Assembly (NCBI GenBank): GCA_902500005.1
Contig: GCA_902500005.1_3678.1
Length of the DNA stretch: 64,000 nt
Reading direction: 5' to 3' (one strand)
From: Escherichia coli
GTDB taxonomy: Bacteria > Pseudomonadota > Gammaproteobacteria > Enterobacterales > Enterobacteriaceae
Within the stretch, counting starts at the first letter, position 1. Each line of letters opens with the position of its first letter. Positions 46,367 through 57,791 of the stretch are shown piece by piece. Both the position numbers and the translations under genes were made by a program. The notes beneath the pieces are model-generated. The model was not told the origin of the DNA. It saw nothing but the letters and a program-made list of their open reading frames with translations, and did no database searches.

Positions 46367-48790
46367 ATGAGCATGTGGTCGTTCGATTTTGAGTCATCCG
46401 GTTTGCTGGAAGACCCAGATCTTTATTATCATTGCGGCCTGTTTAAAGAGCTGAATAAGAACCGTTTTATGCTGTTCCTTCCTCTAAATGACCGCACACA
46501 CTACTCCGAGGAGGATATAGAGAAGGCTAAGAACTTTATTCTGGCAAAGAAAACTCTTTATAAAGATTTTGAAGTTCGCATAGCAGATTTTTCGGAGTTG
46601 GAAGGTTGGCTTACAGGAAATTCCGACTGGTCACCAACAGCTTTGAACTGCCATAACTGCTACAGTTATGACTTTATGCTGATGGAGAGATTATCTGGTA
46701 TTCATTTTGATATGTTCCGTGATCCTAAATGTATGGGGACTATCAACGACCACCAGGTTAACCTGTTCGATACGTTGGCGATGAGCCGAATCTTGTGGCC
46801 TGATCGCCCTTTACCAAAAGGTTGTCCGGACTCTGTATTCAACCCGGTTACTAAGAAAATGCAGCCTGTTGGTCCTCACGGCCTTATGGCATGGGGCTAC
46901 GCTCTTGGTAACCAGAAAGTTCAAATTGATGACTGGCGCGATCTTCCGCTGTGGAAGTATGTGGATCGTGTATTCGAGGACGTTATCATCCAGGAGTTGC
47001 TCTGGAAAGAGCTGGTAGCGGAATCAAAAGGTGTATTCTACGGCAAATCTGACATGCAGAACTTTATGTACGATCCTGCCAAAGAGAAGCCAAAAGGGTT
47101 CAAGAAGATCACCTGGAAGAACGCATTACGCCGAGGCATGCTGCAGCACTTCCTGATGGAGCTGCAGGCCCGTCAGGGTGTGTATTTCGACATAGACGGG
47201 GCTATTGCTTTACGTGACCGTTGCGATGCGTGGATGAAAGAAATAGCTGATCGTGTTGAACCACAACTACCTTTAAAAGAGCTGTCAATGTCTCAGCGGC
47301 CCAAGTTCCCTGAAAAGCCGTTTAACCAAGATGGGACAATCTCCAATAATGGTTGGAAATGGTTAAAAGATAAGCTTGGCTATCCTGTAGACATGAGCGC
47401 TTTAGAGTTCAAAGCCCCACCTAAGCGAGCATTTACCTCCACAGGAGATGTCAGTAAAATGGGGATAAAATGGTGTGAAGAGATGGGCTGCAAAGACCCA
47501 GACAAGATGGCTGATTTCTTGAGAGGTTATATTAAGGGCACCTCCACACCACAACCTTTACCTAAAGAGCTGATGGATCAGGCAATAAGCGATCTGCAGC
47601 AGAAGCGAATGCCTGACTGCAAGATACCTATGAAAATCAGCAATCAGGACGATATTAAGCGATACCTGATCAGTGCTGGTTGGCTTCCGACAATGTGGAG
47701 AACTAAGGATGTAACTAAAGACAGCAAGAAGAAAGCTCTACCTGATGCAGATGTTGATGCACGAGTATATGCATATATGGACGAGCTTTTAGAGTCAGAG
47801 TATTGTGACCTGATTATCAACTTCTGGAACAAAACTGATGCTAAGTTCCAGACAACCGTGCACAAGTTCCGAAGCTTTCCTAACTCCGAAAGGATTAAAA
47901 AGGAAGTATTCGGGAAAATACGTAGAAAAGCCAGGGCACTTATTACTTCTCCGCAACTGAAAGATACGTTTGGACACCTATGTCCGAATCTTGAAAAATT
48001 GAACGGAGAGATGGCTAAAGATATCGTCTTGTGGTTATCATTGCGAAACCGCAGATCGGTCCTTGATCCAATTAAGGAGGATAAGGTTGATACTGGTCTT
48101 CTTAATCACCCACGTTTGAAGATTGACCATAAGCTTCCTGCTAAAAGCTCTGGATTAACAAACACTTCCAGACAGAAACACAGTATTTGTGCAAACATGC
48201 CTAAACCATCTCCTAAAGTGGTTATGGGTAAAGAGATGCGTAGTCTGTGGGGTGTTCCTCCAGGATACTTTGAGATCGGTATTGACGGGTCCAACTTAGA
48301 GCAGCTTATCGGGGCTTGGGGTGCCTTTGAGTTCGACAACGGCTTGTATTATGATGTTGTAAGTAACGGGGACGCACACCAAAACAATGCTGAGGCATAT
48401 ACAAAAGTAGCAGGCAGAGAGGTGTCTCGTAACGACGGTAAACCTATCACGTATGGGGTTATGTACGGGGCACAAAAAGATAAAGTTGCAGATATGCTGG
48501 ACATCTCTCCAGAGTTGGGACAAAGGGTGATCGATGCACTTTGGGATGCCAACCCTGGTCTTAAGGGGCGTAAAGAGGATCTGGAGAAATTCTGGGAAGC
48601 AACGGGTAAGAAGTTTATCTACTCTTTTGATGGTCATGCCATCTGGACCCGATCTAAACACTCTTTACTTAATGCATACCAACAGAATGGTGGTGCATCG
48701 CTGTGTGACTTAGTTGGGATACTTATGCACCACCAAATGGTGAAGCGTGGGTGGTACGATGAAGGTGTTCGTCGTATTATCTATTACCAT
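46367..48790 (+). CDS. DNA polymerase, family A, exon 1 (808 codons; 3'-5' exonuclease + polymerase motifs A and B)
   Basis: Exo I FDFESSG; motif A DGSNLEQ; motif B RNDGKPITYGVMYG; ORF stops 2 codons after …IIYYH, just before the expected motif C. Confidence 0.85.
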
Positions 48791-49633
48791 AAATAACATT
48801 GTGGCTTCATAGAGTGATCTATGTCGAATAACCTCTTTAATCGACGGGAAAGCTAAGTTGACTTTTACACCTGAGTATGGTAAAAGCTCAATATGCTAAT
48901 CCGCAGCGAAGACTAAAGGGGTGTAGTTAAAATGGCTAGAACAGCTGATTATCACGGGTATACCGTGTTTGATGATGGAACAATACCTTTATCGAAACGT
49001 GATCATACAACAATGTTTTGTTTTGATAATGGTAGAGGTTACCTTTGCGTAACCATGCTAATCGAGGGGAAGCAGTGCACAAAAGGTGTCCACCACCTGG
49101 TTGCTGAATGCTTTGTATCAAACCCAGATCCTGAAAGGCTCACATGGGTGAACCATAAGGATGGGAATAAGTACAACAATGCATACTGGAACCTGGAATG
49201 GACCACCCCTGGTGGAAATATCAAGCACGCCTATGATAATGACCTCAGAGTAAGGCCAGTTGGTGAGTATAATGCCAACGCTGTGCTGACAGAAGATGAG
49301 GTAATAGAGATTTGCGAACTGTTGCAGAGTGGTCTACGACAATGCGAGATTAGGGATCTTGGATATCCTTATGAGACCGTCAGGGCTATAAAGCAAAGAA
49401 GACAGTGGAAACATATCTCTAAAAACTACACCTGGTAGTAACGTTCAGAGACTATCGAAAGCATAGCGCCAACATAAATTGGTGCGAAGAAGCGAGTAGA
49501 GTAGGCCAGCAAGTGCGGTCGAAATGGGAGGTGCCTTGGTAACAAGGTAGTGAGATAGTCCGATCCATACAGGAAACTGTATGGCTGTGCACGTAATGGT
49601 GCGGGGTAGCTTAACGACCTACCTGAACTATTG
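48791..49633 (+). mobile_element. group I self-splicing intron interrupting the DNA polymerase gene, carrying an HNH homing endonuclease ORF
   Basis: Conserved elements P-like gacgggaaag (48842), Q aatccgcagc (48898), R gttcagagacta (49443), S agatagtcc (49553; P7 gacta/tagtc pairing); 5' exon ends in U, intron ends in G; IGS gtgg (48801) pairs with exon end ccaT; splicing joins …IIYYH to DEYQLQV… restoring motif C. Confidence 0.75.
48932..49438 (+). CDS. HNH homing endonuclease (HNH_3-type), intron-encoded
   Basis: …VHHLVAECFVSNPDPERLTWVNHKDGNKYNNAYWNLEWTT… classic HNH motif; ORF sits between intron Q and R elements. Confidence 0.8.
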   Translation: MARTADYHGYTVFDDGTIPLSKRDHTTMFCFDNGRGYLCVTMLIEGKQCTKGVHHLVAECFVSNPDPERLTWVNHKDGNKYNNAYWNLEWTTPGGNIKHAYDNDLRVRPVGEYNANAVLTEDEVIEICELLQSGLRQCEIRDLGYPYETVRAIKQRRQWKHISKNYTW

Positions 49634-53166: not shown

Positions 53167-54437
53167 TGAGCGTTATTCAACAATTCGCTAACCCGATGAA
53201 TCCGCGTGAAACTGTTTTACTAGCTCACGGCATGATTAAACGTGTCAGCATCAAGCCTATCAAAGGTGCTGATCCTACAACAGGTATTAAAACCACTGTG
53301 TGGCAAGGTAAGAAAATTGAATCCAGCCACACCATCTCTTTACTGATTTCTGAACTGGATTCCTCTGATAACCTACTTCAAGGTGGTGAAGAAGTTTGGA
53401 TCAGTATGGGCGATAAGCTGCTTAAACCGGGTCATCAAGACTCTGTCTCTGTTAAAATTGATGACAAGTGGGAAACCGTAACGCCAGGATGGATCGTAAA
53501 TATCCCTTTGAAGGCAAACGAGCATAACGGTAAGACCTACTACAAAGGCTCACTGGCTAAGATGGTTAAGCTGGGTGCAGGAGAGGCTCCAGCAGCGACT
53601 CAGCAGCAAAAACAGCAACAAGGTGCACAATCACAAGGCCAGAAGCAGAAACCTCAGCAGAATGCCAATCAGGACGTTTTACGCATCTATGGTGATGTGA
53701 CTCAGATTGTTGGCAACGTGGTTACTGTTAATGACCACAAGATTGGTGAAGGTGCTATGGTTGTAACTGATGAGCAGCTTAAAGACCTGGTGGTAGGTGG
53801 TCGTGTTGCAGCCATTGTTGACAAAGACACCGGAAACATTATCAGTGGTTTCAAAGCCTATCCTCCTAAGGCAGAGAACGGTACTCAAGGCTCCGGTGGC
53901 AAGCGTAAATCCTCTTACGACCCTATCGGTGTGGAAACGGGGCATAGCATCAATGCGTTGCAGATCATCCTGGATCGCGGGTTTAAGGTAGACGACCCAC
54001 TGGGCGTGGCTAAAACACTGCACGTAGTCACCATTGAGCTTAAGAAAGAGTATGCTCAAGCCACCAACCGAACTGAAGATGAAGTAGGTGCCAGTGTCGG
54101 TAATGCGGTGTTGAACGCTTGTCGCCGTATTGACAAGAAAACGAAAGTTGATGATTTTGCAGTGGCAATTACTGCAGAAGCAAAAGATGTCTTGACTAAT
54201 CTAGCTGAGCCGTTGTACGATTGGATCAAGAACGGTGCTGAGTCCACTGACCATCAAGAACCTCAGGCTGCCAAACAGGAAGCAGCTCCACAGCAAAACA
54301 CTGTAGACGCTCCTCCTGTAAATGATGCGGAAGATGACCCAATGGATCAGAATCCAGCACAGTATGACTTCTGTGATGACATACCTTTCGCTCCGGTGGG
54401 TTTGCAATATGGCAAAAGTAGAATCCACGCATTGTAA
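53166..54437 (+). CDS. putative single-stranded DNA-binding protein (SSB-like acidic tail)
   Basis: Gln-rich low-complexity linker; …DFCDDIPF near C-terminus resembles the bacterial SSB tail DDDIPF but is followed by 15 extra residues. Confidence 0.4.
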
Positions 54438-55032
54438 GAGGTGCATCAAGTGCGGAGAGGTGAAAAACCTCTCCGAGTTCTACAAACACCCAAAGATGTC
54501 TGACGGTCATCTTAATAAGTGCAAAGAGTGTTGTAAGAAGGCCAGCAGGGAGGCTGACCAATTTTCCCACGACTCTTCAGAAAAAGGTGTGATCCGCGTG
54601 TTGTACAAGACTCAAAAGTGCAACAGTAAGAAGAGAGGTCACCCGCCTCCGACTTACACCAAAAAGGAGTTTAAGGAGTGGCTATACCTGAACGGTTACA
54701 AAGAGTTGTATGATCAGTGGGTAGCCAGCGGATACGACAAAAGGAAAAAGCCTTCTTGTGATAGGATAGATGATTTCAAAGGGTACTCTTTTGATAATAT
54801 CCGTTTAACGACCTGGGGAGAAAATAAAGACAAGCAGACGGAGGATATTCTGTTGCATAGAAGCACCAGCGGTAGACGGTGTAAAAATGTAAGGAGGCTG
54901 GACATGAATGGTAACGTTCTTAAAGAATGGGTATCCCACAATTCTTGTAGAAGAGAAACCGGAATATGTGTTGATTACTACATTCATGAAAAAATTCCAG
55001 CTCCCGATGGATACCTCTATGAATACTTTTAG
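54409..55032 (+). CDS. zinc-ribbon nuclease-like protein (possible HNH/EndoVII-type homing endonuclease)
   Basis: CKRCIKCG…H…DGH…CKECC zinc-binding cluster; C-terminal …[14 protein letters not shown]-like tail; ATG 54409 overlaps SSB-like gene 3' end. Confidence 0.35.
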
Positions 55033-55047
55033 CACCTAACTGACATA

Positions 55048-55076
55048 GCCCTGCCCGAAAGGGTGGGGCATTTTTG
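55048..55076 (+). terminator. rho-independent terminator, copy 2 of identical hairpin
   Basis: gccctgcccgaaagggtggggc + atttttg. Confidence 0.55.
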
Positions 55077-55094: not shown

Positions 55095-55511
55095 ATGACA
55101 TTAGAAGATATCATTGTTAAACCTGAGAACTATGACCAATACAACCTGTCAACTCAATCTGTAGACCTCGGATGCGCCACAGTCAGTGCATGGCTGGTTA
55201 ACGGAAAAGAGCTTGACGAGTGCCTGGAAGCACACATGTCGGTGAATAAATTTCTTGATGAAAATACCCACTGGCTAGAGGGTGCAGGAGTATATGCTTC
55301 ATGGTTGGAGAGTATGGGATTCGACTACCAATCTGAAGAGGGGTGGTGGAGCTATCTGGCTATCTGTCCAGAAACACTACAATGCTTCATGAAATACTCT
55401 GAAGATCTTGAGTACCGGGCGGTGGTTGATAGTGCTATTGCCCGTTATAGCCGTAAACCTTTTTCCCACGACATTAAAACTGTGGAAGAGTTTGTTGAAG
55501 TTTTCTGTTGA
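55095..55511 (+). CDS. hypothetical protein (138 aa)
   Basis: ATG after AAGGAG. Confidence 0.45.
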   Translation: MTLEDIIVKPENYDQYNLSTQSVDLGCATVSAWLVNGKELDECLEAHMSVNKFLDENTHWLEGAGVYASWLESMGFDYQSEEGWWSYLAICPETLQCFMKYSEDLEYRAVVDSAIARYSRKPFSHDIKTVEEFVEVFC

Positions 55512-55537
55512 CACAGGTTGAAAGGTGTGCAATTATA
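55508..55537 (+). promoter_or_regulatory. sigma70-like promoter
   Basis: TTGACA-17/18 nt-AATTAT/ATTATA. Confidence 0.4.
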
Positions 55538-55607
55538 ACTTCATATGACTGGAGGACGTGATGAACGAAGAAAACTGGGATGTATAACTAACAGGAGGCC
55601 ACTGCCC

Positions 55608-55805
55608 ATGATTTATCGAATCCGTGTAAGAGAAGATGCACCAGGCTGTTACTTTGACTGGCGTGGGTGGTGGTTTCTCCACCCAATGGATGGACTCACA
55701 GATAGAATGCTGGATGCTGCCCTTTATACAGATACCGACATAGAGTATAATCTCTATCTGAAGGACGGTATAGATAACGGCCTGTTTGAAGCAATTCCTG
55801 TGTAA
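55608..55805 (+). CDS. hypothetical protein (65 aa)
   Basis: ATG 9 nt after AGGAGG; the track's upstream ATG lies at the predicted transcript start. Confidence 0.35.
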   Translation: MIYRIRVREDAPGCYFDWRGWWFLHPMDGLTDRMLDAALYTDTDIEYNLYLKDGIDNGLFEAIPV

Positions 55806-55873
55806 GAGACTGTGATAGCTATGTTTTATGATCTTCCTGTAGCACCACCACCTGTTGAACCCGGAGAACTAAG

Positions 55874-56299
55874 ATGATCTATGAAATGCCAAAACTGATT
55901 CGTGACGATGCCCAAAACGCTCACACCATTATTATGGGCAAACGCATGGATATTATTTGTCATAAAGATTTCTGGGAAGGAAGTTACTTCACAGAGTATT
56001 TTGGTAAACTGGACAATGGTCTGCTGATCCAGTTCTACACCGATGCGGAAAACAACATTCACTGGGAGTTCGAAACTGAAGATATCCATAAACTTTTCAC
56101 CTTCCTCGGTATTAAGGTTGAGGCCAAGTTTGAAGAAGGTGAGTGCGACGATTGTGGATTCTATGAGGTAACAGATTTCTATCTCCCGAGTGGTGAGAAC
56201 CTTTACTATGAAAGCCACTTCGGTAACTCCAATATGCCACAGTGCTGGACTGAGTTTTTTGAAATTGCGGAAGAGGAGCTGGCATACCGTGATTATTGA
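55874..56299 (+). CDS. hypothetical protein (141 aa)
   Basis: ATG after GGAG. Confidence 0.45.
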   Translation: MIYEMPKLIRDDAQNAHTIIMGKRMDIICHKDFWEGSYFTEYFGKLDNGLLIQFYTDAENNIHWEFETEDIHKLFTFLGIKVEAKFEEGECDDCGFYEVTDFYLPSGENLYYESHFGNSNMPQCWTEFFEIAEEELAYRDY

Positions 56300-56747
56300 T
56301 ACTGTAGAGGGAGATTTAATCTCCCTTTTTAAGAGCGGTGCTGGTCACCTGATCCACGGTTGTAACTGCTTTCACACAATGGGTGCAGGTATAGCGAAAG
56401 ATATTGCCCGTGAGTTCCCTCAAGCACTGGCAGCCGACAAAGAGACTGCTTATGGTAATCTAGACAAGCTGGGTATGTTTTCTTGTTGGGAGCATTTTGC
56501 CAAGAACAGGGTCGTATATGGAATCAACCTGTATACCCAGTTCTACCCAGGGCCCAATGCTGAATACTTCTCAATCATGAAAGGTTTTGAGCGAGTCAAC
56601 GAGGTATTCAAAGGTGTGTCATTGCCGTTCTACATTCCTAAAATCGGATGCGGTATTGGCGGTCTAAAGTGGGAACATGTGGAAGATGTAATTAATCTTG
56701 CAACCACAGATATTGATGTGGTTGTAGTAGAGTACAAAAAGTGTTGA
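56289..56747 (+). CDS. macro-domain protein (ADP-ribose binding/processing)
   Basis: …HLIHGCNCFHTMGAGIAKDIAREFP… and …IGCGIGGL… resemble macro-domain signature motifs; GTG start overlapping upstream stop (track ATG at 56190 lies inside upstream gene). Confidence 0.6.
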   Translation: MIIDTVEGDLISLFKSGAGHLIHGCNCFHTMGAGIAKDIAREFPQALAADKETAYGNLDKLGMFSCWEHFAKNRVVYGINLYTQFYPGPNAEYFSIMKGFERVNEVFKGVSLPFYIPKIGCGIGGLKWEHVEDVINLATTDIDVVVVEYKKC

Positions 56748-56772
56748 CGACCATCTTCTGAGGTGATATAGT
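56744..56772 (+). promoter_or_regulatory. sigma70-like promoter
   Basis: TTGACG-17 nt-TATAGT. Confidence 0.5.
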
Positions 56773-56801
56773 TTCCACAACAACTAAGAGAGGAGAGCAC
56801 T

Positions 56802-57002
56802 GTGGAGACTAAAATCTTAATTCTTGCTGTGGTAGATACAACCGAAGGAGCTATATTCGAATCTGCAGGAGGGTATTTCTACCTACCATACGGAAAAAGA
56901 ACTTCCGAGCCAAGTAAAGATTCAATCCTCAAAGTGTTCCCGTGTGCTTTCTGGCTGGAGATTCTGGTAGAAGATTGCAGAGGATTAGGGAGAAAATTAT
57001 GA
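56802..57002 (+). CDS. hypothetical protein (66 aa)
   Basis: GTG after AGAGGAGAG. Confidence 0.35.
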   Translation: METKILILAVVDTTEGAIFESAGGYFYLPYGKRTSEPSKDSILKVFPCAFWLEILVEDCRGLGRKL

Positions 57003-57193
57003 GAAACAAGAAAGAACTTTACTCCGGTGAGTGGATCAACGATCAACAGGTGGGAGAGGTAACCTGCTTCCGATGTTTTACCAGGTACAATCTTAAAACT
57101 GCACCAAAAAGTGTTCCAAAGACTGACGGTTATTACATAAAAGAACCTCATTGCCCAAAATGTAAATGCCGATTGTACTGGAGCAATCTATAA
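56999..57193 (+). CDS. zinc-ribbon protein (64 aa)
   Basis: ATG after AGGGAG; CFRC…CPKCKC cysteine pairs. Confidence 0.4.
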   Translation: MRNKKELYSGEWINDQQVGEVTCFRCFTRYNLKTAPKSVPKTDGYYIKEPHCPKCKCRLYWSNL

Positions 57194-57197
57194 GAGG

Positions 57198-57225
57198 TTG
57201 ACATCTGAAAACTGCAGTGTATAGT
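57198..57225 (+). promoter_or_regulatory. sigma70-like promoter
   Basis: TTGACA-16 nt-TATAGT. Confidence 0.5.
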
Positions 57226-57256
57226 ATACGCATAAACTAACAGAGAGCGATGTATT

Positions 57257-57448
57257 ATGGTAATTTTTAACCGGGATGGTATCATAGTTAGACAGCACCC
57301 GTTCCTTGAATACTATCAAATTGAGCAATGGTGCTACGGGGATTGCAGTCACTCCTATGGGCAAAGTTGGGGATATCGTACAGTTTTTGAATCCACAGAC
57401 CTTGACAAAGTAAAACAGAAAGTTTTAGAACTTCTTAACAACAAGTGA
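57257..57448 (+). CDS. hypothetical protein (63 aa)
   Basis: ATG start downstream of promoter. Confidence 0.4.
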   Translation: MVIFNRDGIIVRQHPFLEYYQIEQWCYGDCSHSYGQSWGYRTVFESTDLDKVKQKVLELLNNK

Positions 57449-57458
57449 GTATCGTGCC

Positions 57459-57791
57459 ATGGTAACATTGGAAAGACGTAAAGCTATTGCCGCCACACTG
57501 GCAGACATCTTTTGGGATTGTAATTTAAAATCTACCCGAAATTGTGGTGCATCTGTAGATGTATTATTCCCACGGCCTACTATTGTTGCAATGGGCAACC
57601 TGCTCGATGTGGTATATGGAGCATGGGACAAGGAAGGTGGATTCTATATCTGGCAACCTGACTACGGGACTTGGAAAGAGGTTAGTGGTTCTTCGGACTT
57701 CACTCCTGCAGTGGCTAAAATGGATGGCTGGAAAATCTATGTCGGTAACGACATGGAACTGAAAGGCGAAATTGTTTACTGGTTACCTTAA
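57459..57791 (+). CDS. hypothetical protein (110 aa)
   Basis: ATG start. Confidence 0.45.
   Translation: MVTLERRKAIAATLADIFWDCNLKSTRNCGASVDVLFPRPTIVAMGNLLDVVYGAWDKEGGFYIWQPDYGTWKEVSGSSDFTPAVAKMDGWKIYVGNDMELKGEIVYWLP

Follow-up and report, generated by a model that had tools for sequence, protein, structure and literature searches.

A Tk.4/AdfM-type macrodomain protein encoded by a vequintavirus, a candidate eraser of DarT2-type DNA ADP-ribosylation

A stretch of DNA of 64,000 nt from the Escherichia coli assembly GCA_902500005.1 (contig GCA_902500005.1_3678.1), referred to here as the window, carries a phage gene for a single-domain macrodomain protein. This protein is probably an orphan eraser of DarT2-type ADP-ribosylation of DNA, i.e. 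of ADP-ribose (ADPr) attached to thymidine, which would use a Gln/Asn mechanism of the SCO6735 type and keep the phage DNA replicable. The family is very common in phages and its role was worked out in 2025–2026, so that the finding is confirmatory and not surprising. Slightly beyond the literature consulted is the difference between T4-type and PhiKZ-type AdfM proteins at the catalytic position.

The macrodomain gene occupies positions 56289–56747 on the plus strand, from a GTG codon at 56289 to a TGA codon at 56745–56747, and has 152 codons for a protein of 152 aa. It is real, far beyond chance, because its product matches PHROG 335 with an E value of 2.5e-60, 314 homologues were found in the databases, and the ratio of non-synonymous to synonymous changes (pN/pS) is 0.09–0.32 in comparison with three vequintavirus relatives, which indicates purifying selection. 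Both motifs that the original prediction had quoted as signatures of a macrodomain, HGCNCFHTMGAGIAKDIAREFP and IGCGIGGL, were found in the translation of this open reading frame (ORF). The homologues, including T4 Tk.4, all start no more than 1–2 residues away from the 56289 start (‘MI[IV]xxxxGD’), and the same GTG start is annotated in three other vequintavirus records. A longer frame starting from a GTG at 56190 (185 aa) was rejected, since it would share 110 nt with the upstream gene and the N-terminus of the family coincides with the 56289 start.

The match to the Pfam Macro family (PF01661) is borderline, with 25.9 bits against a cutoff of 22, and its best stretch covers only the 32 N-terminal residues 22–53. 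An AlphaFold2 (AF2) model built with 113 homologues reached a mean predicted local distance difference test (pLDDT) score of 96.3 and a predicted template modelling (pTM) score of 0.91, and it shows alternating strands and helices in macrodomain order and a three-layer alpha/beta/alpha fold. The proposed macrodomain is thus borne out by the predicted fold together with the conserved ADPr-binding loops. A Foldseek search of the model against the PDB gave 176 matches at E ≤ 0.001, and the 50 matches listed consist almost entirely of macrodomains, apart from designed serine hydrolases. The top 17 are TARG1, Poa1p and DarG, followed by BT1257 and SCO6735. The best match is TARG1 (E 1.2e-9, TM score 0.73–0.79), Poa1p reached E 9e-9 (TM scores of TARG1 and Poa1p together span 0.70–0.79), and DarG of Thermus and of Mycobacterium are among the best (TM score 0.73–0.77). 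All ALC1-like structures come before the viral MacroD-like domains in this ranking.

The same ranking was obtained at the sequence level. A family profile compared with PDB sequences matched BT1257 (1.4e-15), SCO6735 (2.8e-14), DarG (4.5e-14), TARG1 (3.3e-13) and Poa1p (3e-12), while no MacroD or YmdB chain was found among these sequences at E ≤ 0.01; the matches outside the ALC1-like group were TTHA0132 (1e-4) and coronavirus nsp3 (about 0.009) only. The best NCBIfam match is the macro half of DarG (NF048014, E 1.2e-12), with residues 5–147 aligned to model positions 3–144 of 338, and the best PADLOC match is likewise DarG (E 1e-13, reaching to residue 149). Of the subtypes that had been considered possible (MacroD/YmdB, ALC1-like, DarG-like), profile and fold searches therefore select the ALC1/TARG1/DarG-like one: judged by profiles and by the model, the protein is a member of the class that contains TARG1, DarG, SCO6735 and Poa1p. 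The MacroD/YmdB subtype is ruled out by the profile and fold rankings, and the COG-style label ‘O-acetyl-ADP-ribose deacetylase (regulator of RNase III)’, which the Joint Genome Institute (JGI) gives to homologues, was rejected by the same rankings. All of the nearest solved structures are ALC1/TARG1-like, a class with members that hydrolyse thymidine-linked ADPr, and this supports the proposed function.

The glycine-rich loops of the fold (N-x5-G-x-G and G-x-G-x-G-G) appear as N26…G32-A-G34 and G120-C-G122-I-G-G125, and are invariant or near-invariant among 113 aligned sequences (Table 1). G24, N26, C27 and G34 of the first loop and G120 and G122 of the second are invariant, and G125 is found in at least 90% of the sequences. 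In the alignments N26 is equivalent to N22 of DarG and N27 of SCO6735, and G120 and G122 correspond to G126 and G128 of SCO6735. Gln84, in the motif ‘NLYTQF’, shows no variation among the 113 aligned homologues and is also present in T4 Tk.4. Its column holds the catalytic Lys of DarG (K80, ‘FPTKK’), TARG1 (K84, ‘LITKK’) and PhiKZ AdfM (K78, ‘FPTKD’). This placement was obtained in three alignments, i.e. by MAFFT with DarG and PhiKZ gp104, by the family profile against PDB sequences, and by hhalign against PhiKZ gp104. Gln occupies the same column in SCO6735 (‘NMIGQHG’; Gln85 after a 20-residue tag offset) and in BT1257.

Table 1 Features of the macrodomain locus and of other parts of the window
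Feature	Position	Strand	Basis
Macrodomain coding sequence, Tk.4/AdfM-family orthologue, single domain	56289..56747	+	ORF, PHROG 335, T4 Tk.4 homology, AF2, Foldseek
First ADP-ribose-binding loop, H23-G-C-N26-C-F-H-T-M-G32-A-G34-I35	56355..56393	+	alignments to DarG, SCO6735, TARG1, Poa1p
Gln84 codon CAG, catalytic-Lys position	56538..56540	+	family alignment and three independent alignments
Second (diphosphate-binding) loop, I119-G120-C-G122-I-G-G125	56643..56663	+	family alignment
Upstream ORF, 141 aa, PHROG 8157 (unknown function)	55874..56299	+	stop overlaps macrodomain gene start
Shine-Dalgarno-like GAGGAG, within 3′ end of upstream ORF	56273..56278	+	sequence reading; 10 nt before GTG
Sigma-70-like consensus TTGACA-17-AATTAT, extended TG	55508..55536	+	candidate promoter, inference only
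Sigma-70-like consensus TTGACG-17-TATAGT with TG, overlaps macrodomain gene stop codon	56744..56772	+	promoter scan
Putative group I intron insertion in DNA polymerase gene	48781-49633	+	Rfam and comparison with bov10K2
Free-standing endonuclease VII/HNH-like gene	~54388-55043; ORF 54322/54454..55032	+	PHROG 1035, E 1.6e-41

SCO6735 of Streptomyces coelicolor (PDB 5E3B) and BT1257 (PDB 2FG1) are orphan single-domain ALC1-like macrodomains in which Gln replaces the catalytic Lys. On DNA, SCO6735 cleaves thymidine-linked ADPr with higher efficiency than either DarG or TARG1, and it relieves the toxicity of DarT (PMC9411070). It is inactivated by the exchanges Q85A or Q85E and nearly so by N27S, as Asn27 locks Gln85 in place; according to mutagenesis H24, N27, Q85 and G128 matter, and the catalysis proposed for it uses a backbone-held water and no Lys (PMC9411070). 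The overall identity to SCO6735 is about 22%, and its residues H24, N27, Q85, G126 and G128 correspond to H23, N26, Q84, G120 and G122 of the phage protein. The counterparts of its key residues (H23, N26, Q84, G122) vary little or not at all in the family alignment, which argues for the proposed activity. The original prediction had named the absence of catalytic or binding residues as evidence against itself, and this was found in part: the Lys of DarG and TARG1 is replaced by Gln84. Activity is not refuted by this, as the arrangement is that of SCO6735. Because the Gln84/Asn26 pair matches Gln85/Asn27, the loss of Lys would not argue against activity, given that the Gln/Asn pair is catalytically competent in SCO6735.

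The missing Lys could also be read in favour of a non-catalytic ADPr binder or a stoichiometric inhibitor, which would neutralise DarT by holding either the toxin or its product. Indeed, the catalytically dead Q85A variant of SCO6735 still inhibits DarT in vitro (PMC9411070). We consider this highly improbable, as all residues needed for catalysis in SCO6735 are invariant in the family and the protein, with its 152 aa and 47.8 bits against the NF048014 cutoff of 250, lacks the C-terminal domain by which DarG binds DarT.

The proposed role as an eraser of thymidine-linked ADPr is taken from the genetics of T4 tk.4. T4 Tk.4 (AdfM) is a full-length homologue with 39% identity and 66% positives over 150 of 152 residues (E 7e-44; 152 vs. 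155 aa). The two proteins share the motifs HGCNCFHTMG.G, NLYTQF.PGPN and P.IG.GIG and the Gln at the Lys position, and both belong to PHROG 335. Both are single-domain phage proteins encoded among small non-structural genes, and they have a similar isoelectric point (pI). The gene neighbours differ: tk.4 lies between vs and tk.3, whereas the window gene follows an unrelated 141-aa ORF. The phages also belong to different lineages, i.e. to Vequintavirus here and to the Straboviridae in the case of T4. Growth of a T4 transposon library on a DarTG2 host gave tk.4 as the only significant hit, and a clean tk.4 knockout sensitises T4 to DarTG2; the gene was therefore renamed adfM, for anti-DarT factor Macrodomain (preprint 10.1101/2025.11.20.689424). 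Taken together, the full-length homology and this phenotype would support the proposed function. A role in countering host defence based on ADP-ribosyltransferases (ARTs), such as DarTG, had been suggested from the start, and it gains support from the homology to T4 Tk.4/AdfM and from DarG being the best family match.

A second phage protein that has been named AdfM, PhiKZ gp104, is an orphan DarG-like macrodomain of similar size (Chimallivirus AdfM), which removes DarT2-made ADPr from DNA as proved biochemically (Cell Rep 2026, PMC13309987). Together with the biochemistry of SCO6735 it is the basis on which enzyme activity is assumed for the window protein, and it further supports the proposed function. 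The identity between the two proteins is 22% (hhalign probability 97%). Both have the loop-1 Asn and the GxG loops, but the active-site pair N23/K78 of PhiKZ AdfM corresponds to N26/Gln84 here, so that the Asn is kept and the Lys is not. PhiKZ AdfM is imported into the phage nucleus, whereas vequintaviruses are not known to form one. On the alignments, the window protein and T4 AdfM fall into a Gln-type branch that is distinct from the Lys-type PhiKZ AdfM. Because of the low identity and the exchange of Lys78 for Gln84, the two published AdfM proteins appear to belong to different subclades of the class.

DarG2 (NF048014; PDB 5M31/5M3E/5M3I) has the same fold and the same Asn in loop 1, and its macro half aligns over the whole phage protein. 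It differs by a C-terminal DarT-binding domain, an adjacent darT gene and the catalytic Lys80, none of which is present here. Filing the phage protein as a DarG antitoxin was rejected for these reasons. Furthermore, the small phage ORFs flanking the gene gave no DarT or ART match in Pfam and PHROG scans, and a six-frame hmmsearch showed that this is the only macrodomain within the 64 kb.

Relatives of the family were detected by translated search in 2,847 of 50,697 phage records. They include T-even, RB49-like (69% identity), Felix O1-like, PAK_P1-like, Vi01-like and KVP40-like phages, and many of them are labelled ‘Tk.4’. In the genome of phage T5, which is sensitive to DarTG2, a six-frame hmmsearch run without any filters revealed no family member (best E 0.075), whereas T4 Tk.4 (1.3e-49) and PhiKZ gp104 (7.8e-11) were recovered as positive controls in the same search. 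The lack of a homologue in a sensitive phage is consistent with the proposed function at the phyletic level.

In cellular genomes the family is rare. Among the genomes of 185,579 bacterial and archaeal species only 43 loci match the strict family motif, mostly in marine Alphaproteobacteria and none in an enterobacterium. In two bacterial loci that were read in detail the macrodomain gene lies among housekeeping genes. None of 106 ORFs flanking 41 bacterial loci matches DarT in Pfam or PADLOC, and the cellular relatives therefore appear to be orphans like SCO6735 and not toxin-linked antitoxins. In three of the 41 loci a NADAR gene adjoins the family member. NADAR proteins are erasers of guanine-linked ADPr on DNA, and the pairing fits a role in nucleic-acid repair, which adds to the support for the proposed function. 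Two of the three NADAR neighbours also match the Pfam family Phage_30_3, named after the bacteriophage protein GP30.3.

Another recurrent neighbour is a class I aminoacyl-tRNA synthetase gene, located directly before the macrodomain gene in nine of the 41 bacterial loci (L008, L021–L023, L033, L037, L042 and others). In L008 the synthetase stop and the macrodomain start overlap, and in T4 (locus L002:4923-5734) tk.4 abuts vs, the gene of the valyl-tRNA synthetase modifier. This adjacency may be coincidence.

From these comparisons the following mode of action is proposed. The gene would probably be expressed from promoters of the sigma-70 type, as part of the block of small genes 3′ of the replication module. 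During infection a host DarT2 toxin would place ADPr on N3 of thymidine in single-stranded DNA and thus block replication. The macrodomain would bind the DNA-linked ADPr by its two glycine-rich loops and hydrolyse the bond between ribose and thymine, so that ADPr is released and the phage DNA restored. Gln84, held by Asn26, would orient both the distal ribose and the transition state, with a water bound to the backbone as proton donor, following the scheme for SCO6735 and not that of the DarG and TARG1 lysine.

Several points weigh against this proposal. The catalytic Lys of DarG, TARG1 and PhiKZ AdfM is missing, and the position of Gln84 beside Asn26 was deduced from alignments. T4 Tk.4 shares no more than 39% identity with the phage protein of the window, and the evidence from T4 is genetic only and was published as a preprint (10.1101/2025.11.20.689424). 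In the literature no experiment with a vequintavirus and DarTG2 was found, and the transposon library of vequintavirus Bas54 was not challenged with DarTG2 (10.1101/2025.11.20.689424). Differences to SCO6735 also have to be considered. Its residues K34, K89 and K94 contribute to DNA binding (PMC9411070), but the DNA-binding K34 is not conserved and aligns with A33, and the mobile loop that carries K89 and K94 in SCO6735 is about 5–6 residues longer than the short ‘QFYPGPN’ found here, which contains no Lys. In addition, V25 of SCO6735 is replaced by G24. SCO6735 is, moreover, a bacterial protein induced by DNA damage and not a phage counter-defence protein. Finally, the phage protein is mildly acidic with a pI of 5.7. 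T4 Tk.4 (5.9) and PhiKZ AdfM (5.05) are acidic as well, and net charge was dropped as an argument about DNA binding, since these two proteins are equally acidic.

The substrate range of SCO6735-type enzymes is a further point on this side. With the same Gln/Asn pair SCO6735 hydrolyses ADPr linked to Glu/Asp of proteins (PMC9411070) and to uracil in RNA, and TARG1, the top structural match, has the same range. As SCO6735-type enzymes act on protein and RNA marks too, DNA need not be the sole or main substrate. The protein could thus be a broad eraser that removes mainly Glu/Asp-linked protein ADPr or uracil-linked RNA ADPr and counters ARTs other than DarT2, activity on DNA being one of several or a minor one; the loss of the SCO6735 DNA-binding lysines would agree with this. 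We regard it as rather unlikely. The sole known phenotype in the family, that of T4 tk.4, is specific for DarTG2, and the literature consulted ties no protein- or uracil-ADP-ribosylating anti-phage system of a host to the Tk.4 family. Moreover, SCO6735 is inactive on 2′-OH RNA marks and is reported to be inactive on 5′-phosphate-linked marks too.

Small derivatives of ADPr have to be considered as substrates as well. In this case the protein would act as an ADP-ribose-1″-phosphate phosphatase, as an O-acetyl-ADP-ribose deacetylase, or in the degradation of an ADPr-derived immune signal or toxic metabolite. PHROG 335 and many GenBank records use the terms ‘phosphatase’ or ‘Poa1p-like’ (historically ‘A1pp phosphatase’), and records of vequintaviruses label the gene variously as ‘macro domain protein’, ‘phosphatase’, ‘Poa1p-like’ or ‘hypothetical protein’. 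The ‘phosphatase’ name is, however, an annotation by homology. TARG1/OARD1 (PDB 4J5S) and yeast Poa1p (PDB 6LFR) share the macrodomain class and the loop architecture with the phage protein. The catalytic dyad K84/D125 of TARG1 corresponds to Q84/G124. Poa1p, an ADP-ribose-1″-phosphate phosphatase of tRNA-splicing metabolism, ranks high both by sequence and by fold, and its H23 and S30, mutants of which have been crystallised, align with H23 and T30; its F152 aligns with G124 (SEQRES offset 3; the middle of Poa1p did not align by sequence), a point against this reading. A survey of viral NAD/ADPr metabolism argues that phage macrodomains target mainly soluble ADPr derivatives (PMC9503650). Nevertheless, the phenotype of the T4 orthologue is explained by de-modification of DNA, and no gene of the KptA/Tpt1 type was seen near the macrodomain gene. 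An enzyme for small ADPr derivatives is therefore considered unlikely.

It had also been suggested that the protein regulates ADP-ribosylation by transferases of the phage itself, and T-even phages indeed possess Alt, ModA and ModB in addition to Tk.4. Nothing was found in support of such a role here. No ART was detected in Pfam and PHROG scans of nine neighbouring ORFs or in the annotation of relatives, the remainder of the genome not having been scanned systematically, and both phages and bacteria are found that carry a family member with no transferase linked to it. Reversal or tuning of the phage's own ADP-ribosylation thus appears very unlikely.

Tentatively, a wider scenario can be considered for the family. 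Tk.4-type macrodomains, among them the window protein and T4 AdfM, may form a mechanistically distinct, Lys-free lineage of the Gln/Asn (SCO6735/ALC1) type that was taken from orphan bacterial ‘genome-guardian’ macrodomains and not from DarG, and that arose independently of the Lys-type AdfM found in nucleus-forming phages. If this were true, they would possibly be broad erasers of thymine-ADPr in DNA, uracil-ADPr in RNA and Glu/Asp-ADPr in proteins, and would protect the phage against several ADP-ribosylating defences at once and not against DarTG2 alone. The occurrence of Gln or Lys in the two types of AdfM also bears on how far mechanism, inhibitor design and specificity can be transferred from DarG and PhiKZ AdfM. 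For vequintaviruses, E. coli phages with a broad host range and frequent candidates for therapeutic use, the proposed function of the eraser of thymidine-linked ADPr provides a testable role for a ‘hypothetical protein’ belonging to the core of the genus, and it predicts that these phages are naturally resistant to hosts carrying DarTG2.

Two natural deletion alleles of the gene were found in public assemblies, where assembly artefacts are possible. The first (P0017) encodes 121 aa on a contig of 135.5 kb and fuses residues 1–54 of the upstream ORF in frame to residues 84–152 of the macrodomain protein. The junction lies exactly at a 10-nt direct repeat, CCAGTTCTAC, at positions 56029–56038 and 56537–56546 of the window. 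The second (P0018, 92 aa) has an internal loss between two repeats of the codons for ‘WEH’ (TGGGARCAT) at 56487 and 56670. As such alleles exist, some lineages seem to do without the macrodomain gene, which would fit a conditional role in counter-defence. Purifying selection together with deletion alleles is the pattern of a conditionally useful accessory gene and is thus in line with the proposed function.

Vequintaviruses are rV5-like E. coli myoviruses with genomes of about 137 kb. A region of 2 kb round the macrodomain gene shows 97–98% identity to about 120 Vequintavirus genomes, the best match being phage RudolfGeigy/Bas52 (98%). The gene is part of a long run of small plus-strand genes 3′ of a module encoding helicase, primase-helicase and DNA polymerase, and the small ORFs surrounding it all belong to PHROGs of unknown function. 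As had been noted before, its GTG start overlaps the stop of the preceding gene: the upstream TGA is located at 56297–56299 and the overlap comprises 11 nt. The upstream ORF and the macrodomain gene are probably co-transcribed and translationally coupled. This ORF has no Pfam family, and its homologues were found only in four vequintavirus-like protein clusters. It was rejected as a conserved functional partner and is not a general partner of the macrodomain family, because its homologues are confined to vequintavirus-like contigs. Two genes downstream, the ORF 56942..57193 (plus strand) matches the Pfam family ‘Phage zinc binding domain’ (PF23903, E 1.5e-22). No credible gene was detected on the opposite strand at the locus, and an Rfam scan of the whole window gave no match at the gathering threshold, so that no structured RNA was seen there.

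A placement among early genes behind strong promoters had been proposed for the gene. Sites resembling sigma-70 promoters are indeed enriched between 49 and 60 kb (32 vs. 19.9 ± 4.7 in shuffled sequences), nearly all of them on the plus strand, and expression from host-type promoters is therefore plausible from the sequence. The part of the claim that concerns promoters would thus agree with this enrichment and with the two sites of Table 1, whereas the early timing is inferred. The more upstream of the two sites is the nearest strong candidate promoter before the three-gene unit that ends with the macrodomain gene, and it is preceded by a terminator-like hairpin at 55048–55069. The site at the end of the macrodomain gene probably starts the next unit of small genes.

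The 2-kb comparison also returned 16 unannotated GenBank records named ‘Campylobacter phage’ (MG065654, MG065666, MG065659, MG065655 and others), which are 97–98% identical to window positions 55500–57500. Campylobacter jejuni is the stated host in 15 of the 16 records. Host assignment or sample purity appears doubtful in these cases.

Elsewhere in the window, the DNA polymerase gene (ORF 46367..48796 and its continuation) contains an insertion of 843 bp compared to the uninterrupted gene of phage bov10K2. An Rfam group I intron model matches positions 48781–49583 over its full length, with 28.5 bits against a gathering threshold of 50 (E 4.6e-5), and a 168-aa ORF carried by the insertion (48932..49438) shows a weak HNH_3 match (E 0.0028). 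In RudolfGeigy the insert at this site of the polymerase gene is shorter. The endonuclease VII-like gene, located 1.2 kb upstream of the macrodomain gene, is absent in RudolfGeigy and present in bov10K2, and looks like a mobile homing-endonuclease polymorphism.

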